Part shown: in pieces, positions 31,847 to 45,109 of the stretch
How positions within the stretch are numbered: position 1 is the first letter of the stretch
Layout of the letters: the number at the start of each line of letters is the position of its first letter
DNA from: Escherichia phage RB69
DNA: 64,000 nt
Strand: one strand, 5' to 3'
Sequence record: NC_004928.1
Translations under genes and position numbers: made by a program
The notes under the pieces: model-generated
Database searches by the model: none
What the model saw: the letters and a program-made list of their open reading frames with translations, nothing else
What the model was told of the DNA's origin: nothing

Positions 31847-32119
31847 TTACCAATACGACGGAAGACTTTCAGCTGCAAAACGGTTTTCAGGGTTTTTAAT
31901 CATGATTTGCATCATGTAAGTTCCTGCATCCGAAAGAGCTTCTTCATAGTACCCATTAATTTCTTTAAGAGTCCTACGTTTACCGCCAGGACCGTCAACA
32001 GTAATTCTCCATTTACCTGTAGAAGTGCGGCTCGGTGGCTCAACTTGTTCAATCCAAATATAACCACCTTCAACGCGTTGGTTGGCGGATTCTGCAATAA
32101 ATTCTTTATACGTTTTCAT
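31847..32119 (-). CDS. internal-protein-like protein with capsid targeting sequence
   Basis: N-terminus MKTYKEFIAE. Confidence 0.6.
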   Translation of the reverse strand: MKTYKEFIAESANQRVEGGYIWIEQVEPPSRTSTGKWRITVDGPGGKRRTLKEINGYYEEALSDAGTYMMQIMIKNPENRFAAESLPSYW

Positions 32120-32182: not shown

Positions 32183-32443
32183 TTAAGCTTGACCGCCAGA
32201 AATAATTCCGAAGTTGTTAAAATCGTATCCAATATCGTCAACATCTACTTTAGGACTTACTACAACATAAGCAATTTCACTACGTTTTGCATAGGTGTTG
32301 ATTTCTTTACCATCGCCACCTAAGAAAGAATACCCATTACGTTTTAATGAGCCAAAATCTTCCGCATCACCAATGAAAGCTTTAACTTTAAATTTAGGGT
32401 CTTTGGCATCTGCTTCAATGATAAATTCTTGATACATTTTCAT
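32183..32443 (-). CDS. internal-protein-like protein with capsid targeting sequence
   Basis: N-terminus MKMYQEFIIE. Confidence 0.55.
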   Translation of the reverse strand: MKMYQEFIIEADAKDPKFKVKAFIGDAEDFGSLKRNGYSFLGGDGKEINTYAKRSEIAYVVVSPKVDVDDIGYDFNNFGIISGGQA

Positions 32444-33218: not shown

Positions 33219-33688
33219 GTTCCTGTTTTAAATGTTGAGATTACGCGTTTCGCGCGATTAGGTGTCTGACGATACCATTTAGATTGGGCTAGATTTACTG
33301 CCGCTTCGTCCCAACGTTTCTGTTGAAGCATACGAAGAGAATTAGTAAAACCGGCGACGCCTGATACACCCATTTGGAAGACCATATTGACCAATGCACA
33401 CCGACGAACTGCATCTAAAGAATCATATACCGGTTTAAGTTTAGCATTACCCAAGATTCCGCGAACGGCTTTATCAACGTCTTCATTAAATAGCTTTTCA
33501 GCCTCATCAAGGGTAATTGTACCGTTGCATTTACGGCCGATCATTCTGTCAAGTTCAGCTTTAGCTACGGCTAAAGACGGGTTCTTTGTTACTAAATGGC
33601 CTATGCCAATCGTCCAAAAGCCTTCAGTGTCTTTGTATAAAGTCAGTCTAAGACCTTCGTCATTACGAAGCATTTCAAATATATTCAT
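33200..33688 (-). CDS. e: lysozyme (endolysin) gp e
   Basis: [32 protein letters not shown] near-identical to T4 lysozyme; start trimmed. Confidence 0.9.
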
Positions 33689-33722
33689 AATACCTCCCAC
33701 GTTTATAGGAGGTATTTATTAC

Positions 33723-34181
33723 TTATAGGAGGGTAGTGAGCACCTTATATAATGATTTGCCCATTACATATTCCCATTGAGAAGGTTTAATTAAAGCGAA
33801 TGCATCAAATTCAGGAATCTGTCGTCCGTCTGGGAATGTATGATAGGAATTACAAACACTGTTTCTGAATTGCTCGTGCTCTACAGGGATGGTATATAGG
33901 AACAGATGAATATTCTTATTGTCTGAGTAATGATGTTCACCTAGGTCTTTCAGGAAGGCAGGGTCATATTGTGTAAACCCAGTTTCTTCTTCGCATTCAC
34001 GAATAGCGGCTTCAATAGGAGATTCGCCAGGTTCGACACGGCCTTTAGGAATATCCCACCGATGAGCTAATGCACCTTTAGGACGAGAACCAGTTACACG
34101 CCCCATGAATAATTCTTTATCTTCGGTAAGGAAAATAATACCGGCTGATAGTTCTTTCACTTTATTTTTCTTACTCATCAT
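33723..34181 (-). CDS. nudE: Nudix hydrolase NudE
   Basis: Nudix box GRVEPGESPIEAAIRECEEETG; position after e as in T4. Confidence 0.8.
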   Translation of the reverse strand: MMSKKNKVKELSAGIIFLTEDKELFMGRVTGSRPKGALAHRWDIPKGRVEPGESPIEAAIRECEEETGFTQYDPAFLKDLGEHHYSDNKNIHLFLYTIPVEHEQFRNSVCNSYHTFPDGRQIPEFDAFALIKPSQWEYVMGKSLYKVLTTLL

Positions 34182-34422
34182 CTCGGTCCCATGATTTGGC
34201 CATTAATTCGGACATAAATTCTTCAATGCGCGTTTCTTTAGATGGACTTTCACTATTAGAGACCGCAAGTTTGTAATCTGCAATAGGACGGAACAAATCA
34301 AGGTCCATATCAAGGTCGTCTTTGATTTGTTCTTCAGGTACATCTGTATCATACGTATACAGATAACTATCAAGTGATTCTGATTTAACGTAAATTGCTA
34401 TACTCATCTCAAATTCCTGCAT
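34171..34422 (-). CDS. hypothetical protein
   Basis: 83-aa acidic ORF. Confidence 0.4.
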   Translation of the reverse strand: MQEFEMSIAIYVKSESLDSYLYTYDTDVPEEQIKDDLDMDLDLFRPIADYKLAVSNSESPSKETRIEEFMSELMAKSWDRDDE

Positions 34423-34901
34423 TCGGTAATAAAACGTTCAACTTCATTATTCTTGGCCTTTATCTTGTCTTTACGTTCCTGTAAACTACTTTTAACAAGA
34501 TTAATAATGATGCCTACAGTACCTCCACCAATAATACCACCAATAATACTTACAATAGTAGATGCTAATAAGATAGCGATAATATCTGGTACAGCAAAGG
34601 CACTTACTTTAGTACTAAAAAACCATACCGACGGTACAAATATAATCCATCCTGTTATCCATTGGCACTTATTGAAAAACTTTTCAAGCTCAGCTTGGGT
34701 TGTTCGTATTACTTCATCGATAGGTTGATATCCATTAATGTATCTGTTCACGATAATACCTGCTGGTTTGTCGATTTTAAATGCTTGACAATGGTGTTTC
34801 ACTAAGTAGGATGGACATCCTGTCCAATCTACTGAATAGTATGAAATACCTTCGTCGCCACCGTCCATGTTTGACCAGTGAATTTTCTGTATCATTACCA
34901 A
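34404..34901 (-). CDS. membrane protein with conserved C-terminal ERFITECR tail
   Basis: 165 aa; C-terminal hydrophobic helices; shares the C-terminal tail family (see findings). Confidence 0.5.
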   Translation of the reverse strand: MVMIQKIHWSNMDGGDEGISYYSVDWTGCPSYLVKHHCQAFKIDKPAGIIVNRYINGYQPIDEVIRTTQAELEKFFNKCQWITGWIIFVPSVWFFSTKVSAFAVPDIIAILLASTIVSIIGGIIGGGTVGIIINLVKSSLQERKDKIKAKNNEVERFITECRNLR

Positions 34902-35581
34902 CCTTCCATAGGGAATTCCAGATAAACTTGAGCGTTGACACGAATTTCATTGGTAATCTTTTTAACTCGGTCCGTATTACGAGATACACGTCCGAACCAA
35001 CGCCATCCATTACTAATTGCACGAGAACCAGTGTGCCATGTTTGCCAATCAAACTGAAGAAGAGTACGGTCTGGAGCTTCCCATTTCTCTAGTTCGCCTT
35101 TTTCGATTTTTTCGAGGACTTCTTTGTGCCACTGGCGATAGATAAGTTCGCCATCAGGAATCTGACTGAACTCTGCAGTTCCTGTTGCAAAATGAGTAGG
35201 ACACACATCAGCGTTAACAAGACCAAGAATATGTTCAGACAAATAGCGAGGATTGTCATAGTCAGGTGGTCCTGCAGTAATAAAGTGTTGACCAACCGGA
35301 ATATCTGGGCGTGGTACATCGTCATGGTGATAACCTGGGATAGCAGGATACCAACCAGGCATCAGCATGTGGACTCGTGAATCAAATACTACATCCGAGT
35401 CTTTCCAATCGTCAGGGAGATTTTGGATAAAGCTACGAGTAATTGGACCGCCGTTATCAAAAGCAAAATTCAAATCGCAATTAAAGAACATAGGCTCGTT
35501 TTTAATCTGGTCGTTTTTAATCGCATGAGCAAAACCACCTACTGCACGAGCTTGACTATTAAACACTTTAGAACTATTCAT
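34895..35581 (-). CDS. hypothetical protein, possible 2OG-Fe(II) oxygenase-like fold
   Basis: candidate HxD (YHHDD), distal His (WHTG) and RxS (RVS) arrangement; weak. Confidence 0.35.
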   Translation of the reverse strand: MNSSKVFNSQARAVGGFAHAIKNDQIKNEPMFFNCDLNFAFDNGGPITRSFIQNLPDDWKDSDVVFDSRVHMLMPGWYPAIPGYHHDDVPRPDIPVGQHFITAGPPDYDNPRYLSEHILGLVNADVCPTHFATGTAEFSQIPDGELIYRQWHKEVLEKIEKGELEKWEAPDRTLLQFDWQTWHTGSRAISNGWRWFGRVSRNTDRVKKITNEIRVNAQVYLEFPMEGW

Positions 35582-35582
35582 A

Positions 35583-35888
35583 TTATTTTCCTCGACATTC
35601 TTTAATGAAATTTTCTAGATTGGTAGATTCAATAGCTTTTTTACGAGCTTCTGCGTGTTCTTCTTCAGACAATTTACGTTTATAATTGACCCAGACATTA
35701 TGGTCGAAACTAGTCGTGGCATATAATAACAATGCTCCAACGAATAGCAAAAACGGCGATAAGAATACAAAACCAGGAACACCATCCATATCGTAAGCCT
35801 TTTGTAATACTGCAACAGAAAGGGCTGCGTAAAAAAGTGATGCAAATATTGTTAAAAGACCAATTCGGTTGGTTTCGCCTAATTTCAT
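35583..35888 (-). CDS. small membrane protein with C-terminal ENFIKECR tail
   Basis: 101 aa, two hydrophobic helices. Confidence 0.5.
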   Translation of the reverse strand: MKLGETNRIGLLTIFASLFYAALSVAVLQKAYDMDGVPGFVFLSPFLLFVGALLLYATTSFDHNVWVNYKRKLSEEEHAEARKKAIESTNLENFIKECRGK

Positions 35889-35907
35889 AATATTCTCCTC
35901 ATGTTTA

Positions 35908-35946
35908 ATAGGACTACTATAATATAGTCCTATAATTGTGTAAACA
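35908..35946 (-). promoter_or_regulatory. early promoter cassette, canonical copy (TAGGACTA/TAGTCCTA)
   Basis: GTTTACA -35, -10 within 8-bp inverted repeat. Confidence 0.5.
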
Positions 35947-35957
35947 GTTTTGCGAAA

Positions 35958-36914
35958 TTATTTGAAAGGTTTTACCATATGGAAATTTTGTTTGAAACGT
36001 TTGACGTAATCGTCATGTCCTAAACTTTGGTACATACTTACTACTTTGCTGTAGTTTTCCCAGGCATACTCACGGAACCAACCAGAGGTGATGCTTGTAC
36101 AGACTTTTTCCAATGCCATCATAAAACTGGCTTCAGGGTTAATTTTAAAGTCATTAGGAATTTGAGAACGTTCTAATGCTAGTACACATGATTCTTCGTA
36201 TACACCAGCCAATTTGACCATTTCTGGTAATGATTCGAACTTCTCGCGTGAGGTCATGACTTCAGAGCCGTCTTTCATATAAAATGTATACGCTGGACGG
36301 TCTGTTAGTGCAATGGCTTCATGAATAGTATCATGGTCATATGTATAGATGTCATCTTTAAAGAACGCACTTTTAGAAGTGTCAAGAACCGGGTGAGCAT
36401 AGTTCAAGGTTTCTTTCTGGCGTTTCAGCATAATTTCAGTAAGTTCATCGTTCAGTGTAACACCTTTACCACGAAGATACTGAATATGGTTCATAGTCTT
36501 TAAAAAGAATGGATTATTTTTCTTGAAACGATGAGACATCTTAATTGCAAGACATATCTCAGGAGTTGCCCAGTAAAACCCGTTCAAACGGTCTTTAGTC
36601 AAATTTTTCTTGGCGTATTTTAAAAGGTCATAAGAAGACGTGAAATCTTCAGGAGTGAGTTCACCGATTAATTCACGGACATTAGTGATTGCCGGAACAA
36701 TATATGCTTCAAAATGAGTTTCGCGTCCATTATGGAAGCATTTGAAAACTTGGACATCAGGGTTATCTTGGTGAACATATACACCCATCATTTGATTTTT
36801 GAATGCATTCCAAGAACATTGGTCCGCAATAAAGTCCCAATCGCTATTTTTGATAGCGCTAGAATCAATAAGACCGTGATAGTGAAGTGCACGAGAACCA
36901 ATAACCAACATCAT
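35958..36914 (-). CDS. hypothetical protein (318 aa); weak nucleotidyltransferase-like or HD-like motifs
   Basis: N-terminal GSRALHYHG...SDWDF and later DHD; assignment tentative. Confidence 0.45.
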   Translation of the reverse strand: MMLVIGSRALHYHGLIDSSAIKNSDWDFIADQCSWNAFKNQMMGVYVHQDNPDVQVFKCFHNGRETHFEAYIVPAITNVRELIGELTPEDFTSSYDLLKYAKKNLTKDRLNGFYWATPEICLAIKMSHRFKKNNPFFLKTMNHIQYLRGKGVTLNDELTEIMLKRQKETLNYAHPVLDTSKSAFFKDDIYTYDHDTIHEAIALTDRPAYTFYMKDGSEVMTSREKFESLPEMVKLAGVYEESCVLALERSQIPNDFKINPEASFMMALEKVCTSITSGWFREYAWENYSKVVSMYQSLGHDDYVKRFKQNFHMVKPFK

Positions 36915-36942
36915 AATATTTTCCTCTGATTAATTCATTAAC

Positions 36943-37194
36943 TTAAATTTCACGACATGCGATATCATATTCATCCCAGAGGTCATCGTGTGAAGCCTCT
37001 ACCAATGGAACGATTGTGCCGTTTATGTCTTCATTATAAGGGCAAATTGTACAGTGCGCATCTTCGAATCGGATGCCTTTGTGTTCAGATTTTTTATAAC
37101 GCATATCGAATATCTTTGCAAACTTTTCACGAGTAATGGTTTTAGCAACCACTTTGGTTCCGATACTTTCGTAATAAATCATTGTGGACTCCAT
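36943..37194 (-). CDS. hypothetical protein
   Basis: 83-aa ORF with CxxC..H motif. Confidence 0.45.
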   Translation of the reverse strand: MESTMIYYESIGTKVVAKTITREKFAKIFDMRYKKSEHKGIRFEDAHCTICPYNEDINGTIVPLVEASHDDLWDEYDIACREI

Positions 37195-37200
37195 TTAATT

Positions 37201-37240
37201 TGATAGGACTACTATAACATAGCCCTATCTTGTTGTAAAC
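37201..37240 (-). promoter_or_regulatory. early promoter cassette (canonical family)
   Basis: GTTTACA..TAGGGCTATGTTATAGTAGTCCTATCA. Confidence 0.5.
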
Positions 37241-37244
37241 TGTT

Positions 37245-37442
37245 TTAGCAAGAATAACTAGATGATACCCAGCCTTGAACAGTAATACTATTATTTGATA
37301 ACGAGATTGCGTCCTGGAGATTCAGACCTGCGTTATCTTCAATCCATAATGTAACTTCTTCGCGTTCTTCTGTTGCAATTTGGAACAGGTTTTCCAGAGC
37401 AGCTACTGCCGTACGTACAGCACAATCTAATTCGCGAGACAT
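37245..37442 (-). CDS. small protein, member of a tandem mosaic trio
   Basis: 65 aa; C-terminus GWVSSSYSC shared with 37452..37724. Confidence 0.45.
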   Translation of the reverse strand: MSRELDCAVRTAVAALENLFQIATEEREEVTLWIEDNAGLNLQDAISLSNNSITVQGWVSSSYSC

Positions 37443-37451
37443 ATTGTTTCC

Positions 37452-37724
37452 TTAGCAAGTGTGAGAAGATGCGACCCAACCACCAGTTTCGAGGCTCAGG
37501 TTGTAGTCGTATTGGTAAACGTCAGCCCATTCAGCATAGCCGTTTTTTGTACAACGTTCAAGATCGGCTTTAAGATGTCCGGGTGAATGATAGGTTCCAC
37601 CCATACCATAAGCTGGGTACAAGTCGAATGTTGTGTTTTGTTTATCAGCAATTTCTTTGGCAGCCTCAATAGCTGCATAGATTTTTGCTACAGCTTCAGT
37701 CAGTTCGGTTTGTTCTTTAGACAT
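37452..37724 (-). CDS. small protein, member of a tandem mosaic trio
   Basis: 90 aa; YGMGGTYHSPG motif shared with 37825..38040 and GWVASSHTC tail shared with 37245..37442. Confidence 0.45.
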   Translation of the reverse strand: MSKEQTELTEAVAKIYAAIEAAKEIADKQNTTFDLYPAYGMGGTYHSPGHLKADLERCTKNGYAEWADVYQYDYNLSLETGGWVASSHTC

Positions 37725-37824
37725 AATGATTCCTTAGCACAACGCAGGAGACGAAACCCAAGCACCTTCAGTAATAACGTAACCATTACCTTCACGCTTA
37801 ACATCGCCACCATTATTTTCAATT

Positions 37825-38040
37825 TCATTTTTCATACCACTGGGATACGATTTCACCCTTAGGATAATAAGTACGACCGCTACCATAATCACCTACAGAA
37901 AATGATACGGCATATTGGTCTGCGATCTTTGTTGCTTCTTCTTCGATACGTTCAGCTTGATTCAGAAGTTTATAAATTGCATCTGAAGCGGATTTGGCAT
38001 CATTAAATTCTGGTACTTTAATTTCGATAATCTTACTCAT
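37825..38040 (-). CDS. small protein, member of a tandem mosaic trio
   Basis: 71 aa; YGSGRTYYPKG motif. Confidence 0.45.
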   Translation of the reverse strand: MSKIIEIKVPEFNDAKSASDAIYKLLNQAERIEEEATKIADQYAVSFSVGDYGSGRTYYPKGEIVSQWYEK

Positions 38041-38396
38041 TTTCTACATTCCTTAATAAAGTTTTCTATTGTTTCATTTTCACGTTTAGCTAGGAGTTCA
38101 TTATAACTAATCATTTGAGAAGCGTAAACCTTTTTATTTTTCTTGTTATGGTTTATAAAATCGTAGTAAAAATAGACTACAGTACAAAATGATGCGATGG
38201 ATGCAAAGGCTTGGGTATACCGTAAGTCCTGCCATTGGTCTGTGAATCCGCCAGTGTTTCCTATAAATCCTAACACAACGCCGTCAATAAGAAATCCAAC
38301 TAATCCAAAGGCAAATCCCATGCCAATACTCATAATAAAAATTAGAATGTTCTCACCAAGAGAAGGCCATACGGTTAAGAGTTGAGGCTTTTGCAT
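38037..38396 (-). CDS. membrane protein with C-terminal ENFIKECRK tail
   Basis: 119 aa, glycine-rich TM helices. Confidence 0.5.
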   Translation of the reverse strand: MQKPQLLTVWPSLGENILIFIMSIGMGFAFGLVGFLIDGVVLGFIGNTGGFTDQWQDLRYTQAFASIASFCTVVYFYYDFINHNKKNKKVYASQMISYNELLAKRENETIENFIKECRK

Positions 38397-38770
38397 CTTA
38401 TTTCCTTAACGAATTCCATAGCTTCTTCATATTCATACTTTTTAACAGCTTCATCATACTGAGCTTGGGCTTTTGCGCACTGAACTTTCCACTCACGAAC
38501 TCGAGCTCTGTGATGACGGCCTTGGTGCCAATATCCTACCCAATTAATAGGCATTAATAAAAACGGTACAATAAGTGGTGCGACGAACATTAATGAAAAT
38601 GCTGCATCAGACGATATAACTTCACTAGAATCTAAAACAGCTCCTATAATCATAAAGATTAAAAATGCTAAAGCTAAAATAGGGCCAAATAGTACTTCAT
38701 TAGGAATTAATTTACGTTTGTATTCGTATGCCCAGGGCTTACTTGGCATGTATAGGGTTGGCTTTGACAT
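38375..38770 (-). CDS. membrane protein with C-terminal EFVKEIRCK tail
   Basis: Track ORF 38375..38800 trimmed to MSKPTLY. Confidence 0.45.
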   Translation of the reverse strand: MSKPTLYMPSKPWAYEYKRKLIPNEVLFGPILALAFLIFMIIGAVLDSSEVISSDAAFSLMFVAPLIVPFLLMPINWVGYWHQGRHHRARVREWKVQCAKAQAQYDEAVKKYEYEEAMEFVKEIRCKSLNS

Positions 38771-39362
38771 ATTCTCTACATTCCATAATAAATTGCTCAA
38801 GGATTAAATTGTTAGTGAAATTAGGACTAACAACCATAGTTTCATAAAGCGCATCAATAGCACTTAAAGCATCAACTCTTTTAAGCAAAGGCTTGCCTTC
38901 ATACATAGTTTCAGAATCGATGATTAACGTAAAGTAATATTTTTTATTATCGACTAGAACTTCTGTATCGATATAAAACATATTAGACCTCAGAAGCTTA
39001 TCTCTAAAACCATAATAATCTTCAGAGCGTTCGCTGATATATTCCCATTCAGTGTTTAAACAACAAACAGACCATGTAGGAGCAACGAAATCAGTGAATC
39101 TAATATCATGGTCTGCAACTAGTTTAGCAATAGCTCCGATATCATGAATCATAATACCTGGGGCTAATAAAGATTTTCTGCTATGGCTAGCCGTTTTCTC
39201 GGTGGTCTCATAAGAAGACGACCAGTACCATTTACGTCCGGTTGCAACATATCGTAATGAATCAACTAAAGACGTAGGTGGATTTACCTTATCTCGGAAC
39301 TCTTCAAACATTGAGTCAATATCATTATTTTGGTTTCGCATGTTAACTCCTTTATTATCCAA
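38739..39362 (-). CDS. hypothetical protein with C-terminal EQFIMECREY tail
   Basis: 207-aa ORF. Confidence 0.5.
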   Translation of the reverse strand: MDNKGVNMRNQNNDIDSMFEEFRDKVNPPTSLVDSLRYVATGRKWYWSSSYETTEKTASHSRKSLLAPGIMIHDIGAIAKLVADHDIRFTDFVAPTWSVCCLNTEWEYISERSEDYYGFRDKLLRSNMFYIDTEVLVDNKKYYFTLIIDSETMYEGKPLLKRVDALSAIDALYETMVVSPNFTNNLILEQFIMECREYVKANPIHAK

Positions 39363-39390
39363 AAGGAGGACCGGAGTCCTCCGTATTATT

Positions 39391-39999
39391 TTATTTCAAA
39401 GAGTTAATATATTCTTGTACATCAGCAGAAGTGGTTTCGACACCAGCTGGAGTGCCATTGAACGTTTCAACACGAGTCAGAGTGTCTTCGATATCAACCT
39501 TAGTCAGTGCAGCGATTTCAATTACATCATCGGCCGTAGAGATACCAAGGGCATTGGCTGCTCGAGTTTCACGAATGTATTCGAGTTTGATTGCCAGATT
39601 CTGACGAGCATCATCAAGTTCAACCACCTTACGAGCAATTTCAATTCGCATAGCGGCATACCCGTCAGCTTTTGTATTAAGTTGTTCGGCAGTTCGACGA
39701 TACAGAAGACCAAGCTTAGCATGCATGGTAACATCTTGTCCTTCAGCCAAGAGCTTACGAATTTCACGTTCCTTAGAAGCGGCTTGCTTGTTCTTTTCAT
39801 TAACAAGTTCGCGAATACGTTTTTCTTCATTAATAGATTTAACAGAAGCCGTTTTTAGTTCTTTGATTTGGGTAATCAACTTATCTGCAGCTGCGTTATA
39901 CTGTTCTTCGACAGTCAGATTTTTAGCCATAGCAGTACCCAGTTTAGTGCGGATGAATTCAACAAGTTTCTTCAGTGTGTTCATATTATTACCTTTCAA
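39391..39999 (-). CDS. coiled-coil protein, possibly PspA/IM30-like
   Basis: about 200 aa, predominantly helical heptad-rich sequence; similarity to PspA is impressionistic. Confidence 0.45.
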
Positions 40000-40013
40000 T
40001 TGGTGGTTTATTA

Positions 40014-40054
40014 TCCAACGAGAGCATTATACTCTGCTCTCAAGAGTTTGTAAA
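40014..40054 (-). promoter_or_regulatory. early promoter cassette, near-duplicate of 10461..10501
   Basis: CCAACGAGAGCATTATACTCTGCTCTCAAGAGTTTGTAAAT. Confidence 0.45.
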
Positions 40055-40282
40055 TTATTTTTTAATCAAATTGACATAAAACTTGGCGTCTTCGGGGTGC
40101 ATGCCTTCGCAGTATTCTTCAACCATGAACTTCTTAACAGCTTCATAAGGACCACTCAGATTAAGCTCAGTTGTCCAGAACTTGGAATCTTGGACTGAAT
40201 CGATACGAACTTCAGGGTGTCGGTTGCGAATAACTTCTTCGGTGTATTCATAATCAACGACATCAATACTAACTTTAGCCAT
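40055..40282 (-). CDS. hypothetical protein
   Basis: 75-aa ORF. Confidence 0.45.
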   Translation of the reverse strand: MAKVSIDVVDYEYTEEVIRNRHPEVRIDSVQDSKFWTTELNLSGPYEAVKKFMVEEYCEGMHPEDAKFYVNLIKK

Positions 40283-40300
40283 TTTGTATTCCTCGTGTTT

Positions 40301-40340
40301 TGATAGGACTACTATAACATAAACTTACTTAGATGTAAAT
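40301..40340 (-). promoter_or_regulatory. early promoter cassette (canonical family)
   Basis: TGATAGGACTACTATAACAT core. Confidence 0.45.
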
Positions 40341-40511
40341 TATTTCAACGTCACCTTTAGCTGCTTTATAACCTTCAGCCCAAGATACAACAGAGTTTTT
40401 ATCTGAGGATTCAAATTCAGGCATTGGACTTTCACCAATATTCACACAGTATGTTTCTTCATTTTCATCGAACCAAATAATTAAAGTAGTCATTTTGTTT
40501 ACTCCTCTGTA

Positions 40512-41549: not shown

Positions 41550-41990
41550 TTACACTATTGCGTTCGCTATTTTGAATAGAACCTTTAGTTTTACGATCAA
41601 AATCAGTGTACACGTCTTGAAGACACGGGCTGCCTTCTTTGCATCATCCAATGCATCAAGAGCTTTATTCAAAGCATTGACATATTTTTTAGTGTCAAAC
41701 ATATTCTTAGAAATTTTAACAGGTGCACGTTCAGGAGTAGCTAAGGCGGATTTAGGAACCTGCGTGCCAGATGCCAGTTTCTTAGAAATTTTGAAAAACG
41801 CTTTATTGAAACTATTTTCTTGACTCATCGTAAAAGAACTAGTATCGATGTTATACATTTCAATAGCTTTAGCTTTCCACTTAAGAAAATCGCCACGGTC
41901 TTTTGGATCCAAGTGGAAGAATACTTTAGTAAGATCTGCTTCAGATGGTAATTTTGCTGCTTCGGTTAAAAATTCGGCATAGGTTTTCAT
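41550..41990 (-). CDS. internal-protein-like protein with capsid targeting sequence; 3' end uncertain
   Basis: N-terminus MKTYAEFLTEA; a second frame (41428..41613) stays open to the terminator. Confidence 0.5.
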   Translation of the reverse strand: MKTYAEFLTEAAKLPSEADLTKVFFHLDPKDRGDFLKWKAKAIEMYNIDTSSFTMSQENSFNKAFFKISKKLASGTQVPKSALATPERAPVKISKNMFDTKKYVNALNKALDALDDAKKAARVFKTCTLILIVKLKVLFKIANAIV

Positions 41991-44798: not shown

Positions 44799-45109
44799 TA
44801 TTTTATGCCTTTAGATGAAATAGTATTCTGGCGTTTGACCCCTGTTTGTGAAAAATCATGGTTATCAATTTGGTCAACTCGCATAACACCAAATGCAGAT
44901 TTAATTTTAGCCTTTGAACCTTTTTTGATACTAATTACCATATAAGTATCATTTTTCTTATATTCGAAATTTGTTACTTCAACGCCTTGATTAGAAATTG
45001 ACTTAATAATAGCATTAGCGTATTCATCATCTAACGGACCGTTAGTGTTAATAACAAAATTTTTATCTGCTTTAGTAGCTTCCGCGATGAATTCTTGATA
45101 GGTTTTCAT
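44783..45109 (-). CDS. internal-protein-like protein with capsid targeting sequence (ipI position)
   Basis: MKTYQEFIAEA leader; located directly before 57B as ipI is in T4. Confidence 0.55.
   Translation of the reverse strand: MKTYQEFIAEATKADKNFVINTNGPLDDEYANAIIKSISNQGVEVTNFEYKKNDTYMVISIKKGSKAKIKSAFGVMRVDQIDNHDFSQTGVKRQNTISSKGIKYFTTR

Follow-up and report, generated by a model that had tools for sequence, protein, structure and literature searches.

A candidate selected C-terminal peptide with limited dual coding on small proteins of the e.6-to-nudE cluster of T4-type phages

Translational coupling, in which a Shine-Dalgarno (SD) sequence is embedded in the upstream open reading frame (ORF) and stop and start codons overlap as ATGA or TAATG, is general in T4 and in bacteria. 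The internal proteins of T4 carry a capsid targeting sequence (CTS), MKTYQEFIAE, which is cleaved by the prohead protease after I-x-E. The hyperplastic regions of T4-type genomes contain promoter-early stem-loop (PeSL) elements, which are mobile regulatory cassettes (Arbiol et al. 2010, PMC2839356; Comeau et al. 2014, PMC4122927), and PspC, a small membrane protein of the bacterial Psp system, binds PspA through its cytoplasmic C-terminal domain (PMC5596341). Here we analyze a 64,000-nucleotide (nt) stretch of Escherichia phage RB69 (NC_004928.1; hereafter the window) and describe a short peptide tail that bears comparison with each of these systems. It occurs near the end of five minus-strand genes that are flanked by the lysozyme/nudE genes on one side and by the tRNA cluster on the other. 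This region has 97% identity to the genomes of Escherichia phage mogra and of further Mosigvirus phages, which are RB69-like and T4-type. Comparison with T4 identified the carriers as counterparts of e.5, e.4, e.3 and full-length e.2, together with a 101-aa protein without a T4 counterpart (Table 1). T4 e.2-e.8 have been without an assigned function since the genome was sequenced. The tail, whose core may be written hydrophobic(-3)-[E/N](-2)-x-[F/W](0)-[I/V](+1)-x-x-C(+4)-[R/K](+5), offers a concrete handle, that is, one peptide with which a whole block of "dark" phage genes can be probed.

Using a six-frame translation of the window, we found exactly four matches to E-x-F-[IV]-x-E-C-[RK], all on the minus strand and 1-11 residues before a stop codon, and a fifth, looser copy, FVKEIRCK, at the end of e.4. 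The strict pattern E.F[IV].EC[RK] did not occur in 200 shuffles of the window, and F[IV]x[ED]C[RK] had no match in any frame of the ~105 kb that lie outside the window in the near-identical mogra genome (~169 kb in all). The five genes and tails named in a preliminary description of this DNA are hence all present on the minus strand as described there, with the refinement that the four strict copies stand near the C-terminus and not at it, and that the fifth is degenerate, its Cys being displaced by one position and derived from the ATG of the next gene. The same description had called for a search of other T4-type genomes, which here covered 12 genera: in 12 phages, one core pattern, [FWY]-[IVLM]-x-x-C-[RK] at most 40 aa from the C-terminus, was found in 35 of the 144 ORFs of the e.6-to-nudE interval compared to 1 of the 493 other ORFs of these genomes (Fisher p = 2e-23).

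Tails are kept in the orthologs of T4 (KEFVIDCRKIK), Dhakavirus IME341 (LETFIKECKS), Gaprivervirus DK-13 (LNSFIEECRK) and Yersinia phage P8 (NRFIAECREYAK) at an overall identity of ~30-40%. In Marfavirus, Moonvirus, Winklervirus and Karamvirus, three to five genes each within the same interval end in [FW]-[IV]-x-x-C-[RK], and Biquartavirus and Pseudotevenvirus have one such gene each, of the e.5 type. The tails of the distant genera read FIKHCR, FIKYCR, WIKGCRK, FINLCR, FIMQCR, FINSCR and FVKMCR, and further FIKGCRK, FINYCR, FIRMCR, FINNCR, FISKCR, FVDYCR and FIHSCK. The number of tail-bearing genes per locus ranges from 0 to 5, and 0 to 25 residues separate the motif from the stop. One short peptide is common to at least a dozen PHROG families (2203, 9798, 2330, 2604, 2607, 13418, 8788, 10543, 20096, 29231, 23997 and 16360), from Escherichia to Aeromonas phages. 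It is apparently undescribed: no library family covering the tail was found, literature searches on T4 e.3, e.4, e.5 and e.6 returned no paper on these genes, and the five carriers and e.6 gave no significant match in Pfam, NCBIfam, PADLOC and PDB sequence searches. Mosigvirus e.5 homologs bear the precomputed label PF26876.1, whose model lies outside the Pfam set used here. Homolog searches with e.3 and e.5 returned near-identical proteins only, and a profile of the five window tails run against 1.84 billion representatives recovered just two close relatives; the motif is too short to be searched alone at that scale.

We found the amino acids of the tail, and not its nucleotides, to be the conserved quantity. 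Upon aligning 33 unique tails on the aromatic residue (position 0), position -3 was hydrophobic in 94% and position -2 was E or N; position 0 held F in 31 tails and W in the other 2, at +1 there were 27 I, 5 V and 1 L, and at +5 there were 29 R and 4 K, whereas +2 and +3 were variable, with E at +3 kept in only 15 of the 33. The C at +4 belongs to the search pattern, so that its invariance is by construction. The codons at the conserved residues vary freely: TTT (18) and TTC (12) for Phe, TGT (20) and TGC (12) for Cys, and all six Arg codons (AGA, AGG, CGT, CGC, CGA, CGG). The two identical ENFIKECR copies in the window, of e.3 and of the 101-aa protein, differ in 4 of 8 codons (AAT/AAC, TTC/TTT, AAA/AAG, CGA/AGA), and e.5 orthologs from 8 phages share only 5 invariant non-Met columns, 3 of which are the F, C and R of the tail. 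As the conserved positions use every synonymous codon, selection acts on the amino-acid sequence, and these comparisons strongly support F-I..C-R as a genuine protein motif maintained by selection. Of the options raised in the preliminary description, that of a protein motif therefore holds up, with F, I/V, C, R/K and the hydrophobic residue at -3 kept across genera at ~30% identity or without detectable similarity; the synonymous-versus-nonsynonymous comparison proposed there shows kept residues and free synonymous codons, the opposite of a conservation confined to synonymous sites around the SD.

The genes of this cluster are packed end to start, and therefore the ribosome-binding site of the next gene falls in or next to the tail codons. 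At every window junction, stop and start overlap or abut and the SD lies within or beside the tail codons; among 35 junctions across the genera, 14 have an ATGA stop-start overlap, and in 31 an SD-like match precedes the start by 4-12 nt, several of these being weak 3-nt matches. The preliminary description had stated that the tail DNA holds the SD and ATG of the downstream gene, and the DNA it quoted, TTTATTAAGGAATGTAGAAAATGA, is correct for 38037-38060. While this picture applies to e.3, the SD lies elsewhere or is weak for e.2, the 101-aa gene and e.5. Within the window, only e.3 and e.4 have it inside the K-E codons; in the long e.2 it occupies the C-R codons (TGC AGG AA), in the 101-aa gene it lies beyond the motif (GAGGAAAA, 35586-35593; CGA GGA AAA), and e.5 has a weak match only (GGA, 11 nt upstream of the ATG). 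Across carriers, the offset of the SD from the F codon was +6/+7 nt (the middle codons) in 13 genes, +15/+16 nt (the C-R codons) in 6, +18 to +30 nt in 6 and at least +69 nt in 4, and some tails have no nearby downstream start, the SD being 69-80 nt away or no start being found.

The middle residues follow the position of the stop codon. All 11 tails with a stop at most one codon after the motif have an SD-like hexamer in the two middle codons (AAG GAA, GAG GAA, AAA GGA, AAA GGG or AAA GAG), compared to 2 of 23 otherwise, counts that include orthologs and correspond to ~7 lineages as independent events. When the stop is farther away, the middle residues are NY, NL, KH, MQ, NS, RM, SK, DY, HS and others. 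Since the SD occupies the middle codons only in tails that stop at most one codon past the motif, "K-E" is the footprint of the SD and F-I..C-R the protein motif. On this comparative evidence the dual coding is real but limited: the SD sets the x-x dipeptide and the protein the rest, such that the ribosome-binding site fixes just the two middle residues (K-E, E-E or K-G) when the stop follows at once. The suggestion that nucleotide and protein constraints both act thus stands for the middle codons of stop-adjacent tails and falls for F, I, C and R. The tail is a clean natural example of dual coding, with 2 residues from the ribosome-binding site and 4-5 from the protein, which can be read from comparative data.

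Could the junction alone explain the tail? A pure nucleotide-level cassette, in which the DNA is kept for its SD and start context in translational coupling and the peptide is a by-product, was another option of the preliminary description, and it would fit the overlap or abutment of stop and start nearly everywhere with an SD in or beside the tail codons, the 91% identity over 22 nt between the window's tail DNAs of e.3 and e.5, and the e.2 genes of two Mosigviruses, whose last 22 codons show no synonymous change. However, the SD-bearing codons are the most variable ones while every synonymous codon is in use at the conserved F, I, C and R, the SD occurs at four different offsets, four tails lack a nearby start, the 101-aa copy writes K-E as AAA GAA, which is not an SD, and overlapping junctions elsewhere in the genome are without the motif (1 of 493 ORFs). 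These observations refute such a cassette as the cause of the conservation, and we consider its likelihood close to negligible. A nascent-peptide signal, by which the tail would slow termination in the ribosome and favor re-initiation at the overlapping start, would suit the many membrane carriers that have the motif 0-3 residues from a stop overlapped by a start; it seems very improbable, however, given the spread of motif-to-stop distances up to 25 residues and the several carriers without an overlapping downstream gene, and the tail is not known to resemble any arrest peptide.

The anatomy of the tail suggests a helix with a probable cytoplasmic location. The hydrophobic positions -3, 0, +1 and +4 have the spacing i, i+3, i+4, i+7, and the tail 9-mers have a mean helical hydrophobic moment of 0.59, compared to 0.30 +/- 0.16 for other 9-mers of the same proteins; we propose that the tail folds as a two-turn amphipathic helix near the C-terminus. 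Membrane carriers contain 0-1 K/R in the loop between their transmembrane (TM) helices and 9-11 between the last TM helix and the tail, and by the positive-inside rule this K/R-rich segment after the second TM helix would place the tail in the cytoplasm. Its carriers comprise a soluble e.5-type protein and a lineage-specific set of small inner-membrane proteins with two predicted TM segments, namely e.2, e.3, the 101-aa protein and, with a degenerate tail, e.4. We see its most probable role as that of a common docking or oligomerization peptide, by which these jointly expressed proteins would attach to one another or to a single common partner at the inner face of the membrane. No late promoter motif was found in 33600-40400, and e.6, an 83-aa gene and the 101-aa gene are preceded by early-type promoters, of which three belong to PeSL-like repeats; the cluster is therefore probably of early or middle expression. 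Overall, we regard it as moderately likely that the tail is a selected protein motif with SD-shaped middle residues that acts as a shared cytoplasmic docking or oligomerization helix, with moderate confidence in the nature of the motif and low confidence in its binding partner.

Several observations weigh against this reading. The counts across phages are not phylogenetically independent. The e.4-type tails have no Cys, the e.5-type proteins of Muldoonvirus WSPA replace the Cys by Ala, and two large Aeromonas-type phages replace the Arg by Ile; given the latter two substitutions, no single residue is absolutely required. The last 22 codons of e.2 show no change, synonymous ones included, between the window and O157 typing phage 3, which is compatible with an extra nucleotide-level constraint from the overlapping initiation region. 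Finally, an AlphaFold2 (AF2) model of e.5 from a 21-sequence alignment reached a predicted local distance difference test score (pLDDT) of 38.7, which made it unusable for a fold search. Over its full length, e.2 evolves fast within Mosigvirus: window 34404..34895 and O157 typing phage 3 (contig L018, 1507-1998) differ by 24 nonsynonymous and 17 synonymous changes, which cluster toward the N-terminus and in the TM part.

Do the carriers form a single family, and one of small membrane proteins, as the preliminary description had it? Partly in line with that wording, 1-2 TM segments are predicted in four of the window's five carriers, ahead of a basic segment and the tail, whereas e.5 (200 aa, no predicted TM segment) is soluble, and several carriers from other genera likewise lack a TM segment. 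BLASTP among the window paralogs, and of window e.5 against the DK-13 protein at the e.5 position, aligned essentially the tail alone, with one pair adding a non-significant 9-residue match (E = 0.63), and hhalign gave a probability of 4.5% for the e.2-like against the e.3-like group profile once the tails were removed. Beyond weak PHROG cross-hits to the C-terminal half of phrog_2203 from the 101-aa protein, two Karamvirus proteins and a Marfavirus protein, BLASTP and hhalign detected no similarity outside the tail that would indicate common descent of the whole proteins, although a multiple alignment of the e.5-position proteins of 8 phages does reveal weak conservation of their bodies. The tail-only alignments and the low hhalign probability indicate that the tail is a module on bodies that are unrelated or have diverged beyond recognition. 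One might still regard it as a relic of a single ancestral protein whose C-terminal helix, needed for example for folding or membrane insertion, is merely the slowest-evolving element and has no shared partner. The phrog_2203 cross-hits and the common 2-TM, basic segment and tail architecture of the membrane carriers speak for such descent, while the e.5-type proteins (180-306 aa) and soluble carriers of 95-131 aa, with no TM segment and no similarity outside the tail, and the tail-less profile comparison speak against it. A function that belongs to the peptide itself accounts more readily for its being kept on several distinct bodies, and we judge the relic to be unlikely.

We also weighed a role of the tail in recombination. 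IME341 has no e.4, and its e.5/e.3 junction is a hybrid of the two DK-13 junctions that flank e.4: the left part equals the DK-13 e.5/e.4 junction save for three single-base differences, the right part equals e.4/e.3, and the crossover lies inside a ~17-nt SD-spacer-ATG microhomology. Similar junctions can hence mediate gene-precise gain or loss, like PeSLs. On this basis, tail and junction together might be a linker, a coding analogue of the PeSL cassettes of the hyperplastic region, which supplies short homology for gene-precise insertion, deletion and shuffling and persists by cassette spread. Besides the loss of e.4, such a linker would fit the variable number of tail genes per locus, a 60-aa database protein that fuses the e.3 tail region to the e.4 tail, and the documented precedent of PeSL-mediated shuffling in T4-type hyperplastic regions (PMC2839356). 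However, the homology at the sole clear indel lies just downstream of the core motif, from SD to ATG and outside F-I-x-x-C-R, and the tail copies within a genome differ at many synonymous sites, which makes them poor substrates and speaks for recombination as a side effect, not the reason for the motif. Furthermore, the amino-acid conservation across genera needs selection at the protein level, and the 60-aa chimera may be an assembly artefact, so that we find a recombination linker distinctly improbable.

That chimera, P0038 from a Logan assembly, consists of an internally deleted e.3 (to ...RENETIE) joined to the e.4 tail region (AVKKYEYEEAMEFVKEIRCKSLN), and it represents either a rearrangement between tail regions or an artefact of assembly. 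In some Mosigviruses e.3 is a pseudogene (contig L004, 6976-7090; p000v, LF82-35, moskry and PTE-Eco05), in which an out-of-frame deletion of ~250 nt has removed the TM region while the last 90 nt, with the tail codons and the SD and ATG of the next gene, are kept; in L004 and its relatives the deletion endpoints lie outside the tail repeats. A 66-nt PeSL-like element, made of an early promoter (TTTACA-17-TATAGT) and a stem-loop (ATAGGACTA...TAGTCCTAT), occurs in three copies in the window, at 35885-35950, 37180-37245 and 40280-40345. They bracket the gene pair for the 83-aa and 318-aa proteins, with one copy upstream of a gene at 40055..40282 that precedes e.6.

Table 1. Tail carriers and adjoining features in the window
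Feature	Position	Strand	Remarks
e.6 homolog, 197 aa	39391..39984	minus	conserved neighbor upstream of e.5; model is a long helical hairpin
Terminator-like hairpin, GGAGGACTCCGGTCCTCC + TTTT	39365..39382	minus	between e.6 and e.5
e.5 homolog, 200 aa	38739..39341 (alternative span ..39362)	minus	ends LEQFIMECREYVKANPIHAK before the stop; directly downstream of e.6; 0 predicted TM segments; phrog_2607; 47% identity to T4 e.5; 200-aa coding sequence in mogra annotation
e.5 tail, E-Q-F-I-M-E-C-R	38775..38798	minus	e.4 ATG 38770..38768, 5 nt past R codon
e.4 homolog, 131 aa, 2 predicted TM segments	38375..38770	minus	ends MEFVKEIRCKSLNS before the stop; phrog_2604
e.4 degenerate tail, F-V-K-E-I-R	38396..38413	minus	K-E codons AAGGAA (38402-38407) are the e.3 SD; e.3 ATG (38396..38394) spans the R and C codons of the e.4 tail
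e.3 homolog, 119 aa, membrane protein	38037..38396	minus	ends IENFIKECRK before the stop; phrog_2330; 35-40% identity to Tequatrovirus e.3
e.3 tail, E-N-F-I-K-E-C-R	38043..38066	minus	AAGGA (38050-38054) is the next gene's SD; next ATG 38040..38038 overlaps the e.3 stop (ATGA)
101-aa protein, 2 predicted TM segments	35583..35888	minus	ends LENFIKECRGK before the stop; first gene after PeSL-like early promoter; phrog_9798, plus weak match to C-terminal half of phrog_2203
101-aa protein tail, E-N-F-I-K-E-C-R	35592..35615	minus	GAA AAT TTC ATT AAA GAA TGT CGA
Full-length e.2 homolog, 163 aa	34404..34895 (alternative span ..34901)	minus	ends VERFITECRNLR before the stop; phrog_2203; mogra annotation; N-terminal soluble domain, 2 predicted TM segments, tail
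e.2 tail, E-R-F-I-T-E-C-R	34416..34439	minus	next gene's SD AGGAA 34414-34418 (R codon + 2 bases); likely next ATG 34407..34405 overlaps the stop and fits the 237-nt downstream coding sequence of mogra annotation

Two conserved soluble proteins are encoded among the tail carriers, also on the minus strand, and are present in every enterobacterial genus examined: one of 228 aa that ends ...VYLEFPMEGW (34895..35581) and one of 318 aa with DUF7277 and DUF7275 (35958..36914). Between e.3 and the DUF7275 gene lies a second paralog family of tandem small acidic proteins (50-100 aa) that end in W-V-S-S-S-x-x-C directly before the stop (window 37245..38040, minus strand; contigs L005 6351-7593, L007 6351-7372 and L011 8567-10139). 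Its endings in the window read GAWVSSPALC, GGWVASSHTC and QGWVSSSYSC, and every examined genus that has the region holds 2-5 copies, with none in T4. The first window copy seems split (37825..38040 and 37734..37892), where a related contig, L004, has a single 101-aa ORF. In T4 itself, e.2 (NC_000866; contig L002, 3492-3961; 102 aa) is cut short by two compensating frameshifts ~75 nt apart, as seen by comparison with Tequatrovirus PYps32T (contig L019, 1501-1989), whose 162-aa protein ends NNFITECRKLK before the stop. In its original frame, ...NLNNFITECRK can still be read from the T4 "intergenic" DNA that precedes nudE, and the annotated nudE ATG lies inside the E-C-R codons; a second ATG (MKTLSAG), behind the SD GCAGGAAA, appears more likely to be the start of nudE than the annotated one.

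The described systems each share part of this arrangement. With ordinary translational coupling, the tail-gene junctions have in common the layout of coupled pairs, in which stop and start overlap or abut and the SD lies inside the upstream ORF and in or beside the tail codons. However, such coupling is found genome-wide, while the peptide motif is confined to the e.6-to-nudE cluster, and coupling accounts for only two middle residues of the tail. The CTS and the tail share the string F-I-x-E, and both are short peptides on many unrelated, fast-evolving small proteins at neighboring variable loci. In contrast to the tail, which is C-terminal and defined by C-R, the CTS is N-terminal and without C-R; tail carriers are moreover membrane proteins, in a region with early-type promoters and no late promoter motif. 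We rejected the tail as a CTS on its C-terminal position, on E(+3) being present in only 15 of 33 tails, and on the absence of its defining C and R from the CTS. Genes with CTS variants do flank the tail cluster on the minus strand (45080-45109, 41961-41990, 32414-32443 and 32090-32119); they are internal-protein-like, and the variants in the window read MKTYQEFIAE, MKTYAEFLTE, MKMYQEFIIE and MKTYKEFIAE.

PeSLs resemble the tail as short repeats at gene boundaries in a variable, non-essential early region, with at least one gene-precise indel between two similar junctions at the tail genes, and three PeSL-like copies even lie within the region of the tail cluster. Yet PeSLs are non-coding promoter and terminator elements conserved as DNA, whereas the tail is coding and conserved as amino acids, with free synonymous variation and no RNA structure: upon folding the five junction RNAs against shuffles, we obtained z values of -0.97 to +1.85, that is, no unusual secondary structure. 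A PeSL-type nucleotide cassette was rejected on the differing codons of the identical ENFIKECR copies and the use of all synonymous codons, and a promoter plus stem-loop at the tail junctions on RNAs no more stable than shuffles, the true PeSL-like repeats lying elsewhere.

The Psp system brings in the neighboring gene e.6, which is present in about 1100 phage records. In 11 of 12 genera the core motif is present in the gene directly downstream of e.6, the exception being Muldoonvirus WSPA with its Cys -> Ala change, and it is likewise present there in 35 of 39 IMG/VR loci, the four exceptions being two truncated genes and two with F-[IV]-N-Y-C-I. Across genera, e.6 and the e.5-type tail gene therefore form a conserved core, while the membrane carriers, 0-4 per genome, are lineage-specific. 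A single-sequence AF2 model of e.6 (pLDDT 75.8, >90 for residues 30-130) shows a long helical hairpin followed by short helices, and its top 10 Foldseek hits in the PDB were all Vipp1/PspA (E 4e-4 to 1.7e-2), followed by the ESCRT-III protein CHMP1B. Profile searches gave e.6 no match to Pfam PF04012 or in the PDB, hhalign against an E. coli PspA sequence gave 0.5%, and a literature search on phage-encoded relatives of PspA or ESCRT-III returned no relevant paper. A possible link of the tail with the adjacent, conserved e.6 is weakly supported, with gene linkage as the support for binding.

Like PspC, the tail carriers include small inner-membrane proteins with a predicted cytoplasmic C-terminal helix, and they are encoded beside what is, in the model, a PspA/Vipp1-like helical hairpin; as with short docking peptides shared by the C-termini of unrelated proteins, for which PspC serves as the example, the same peptide is found on several bodies. 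The carriers and e.6 differ from the Psp system in having no sequence similarity to PspB/C or PspA, and the carriers also in being two-TM hairpins or soluble proteins. By analogy, the binding of PspC to PspA makes a docking role of the tails an attractive idea. We consider it rather doubtful, though conceivable, that the tail is a portable address peptide that tethers the membrane carriers and the soluble e.5 to a PspA/Vipp1-like e.6 in a hitherto unrecognized phage Psp-like module for inner-membrane integrity during T4-type infection, in which the lineage-specific membrane carriers would be interchangeable anchors or sensors. If the link to e.6 were true, it would point to a phage-encoded membrane-maintenance system.

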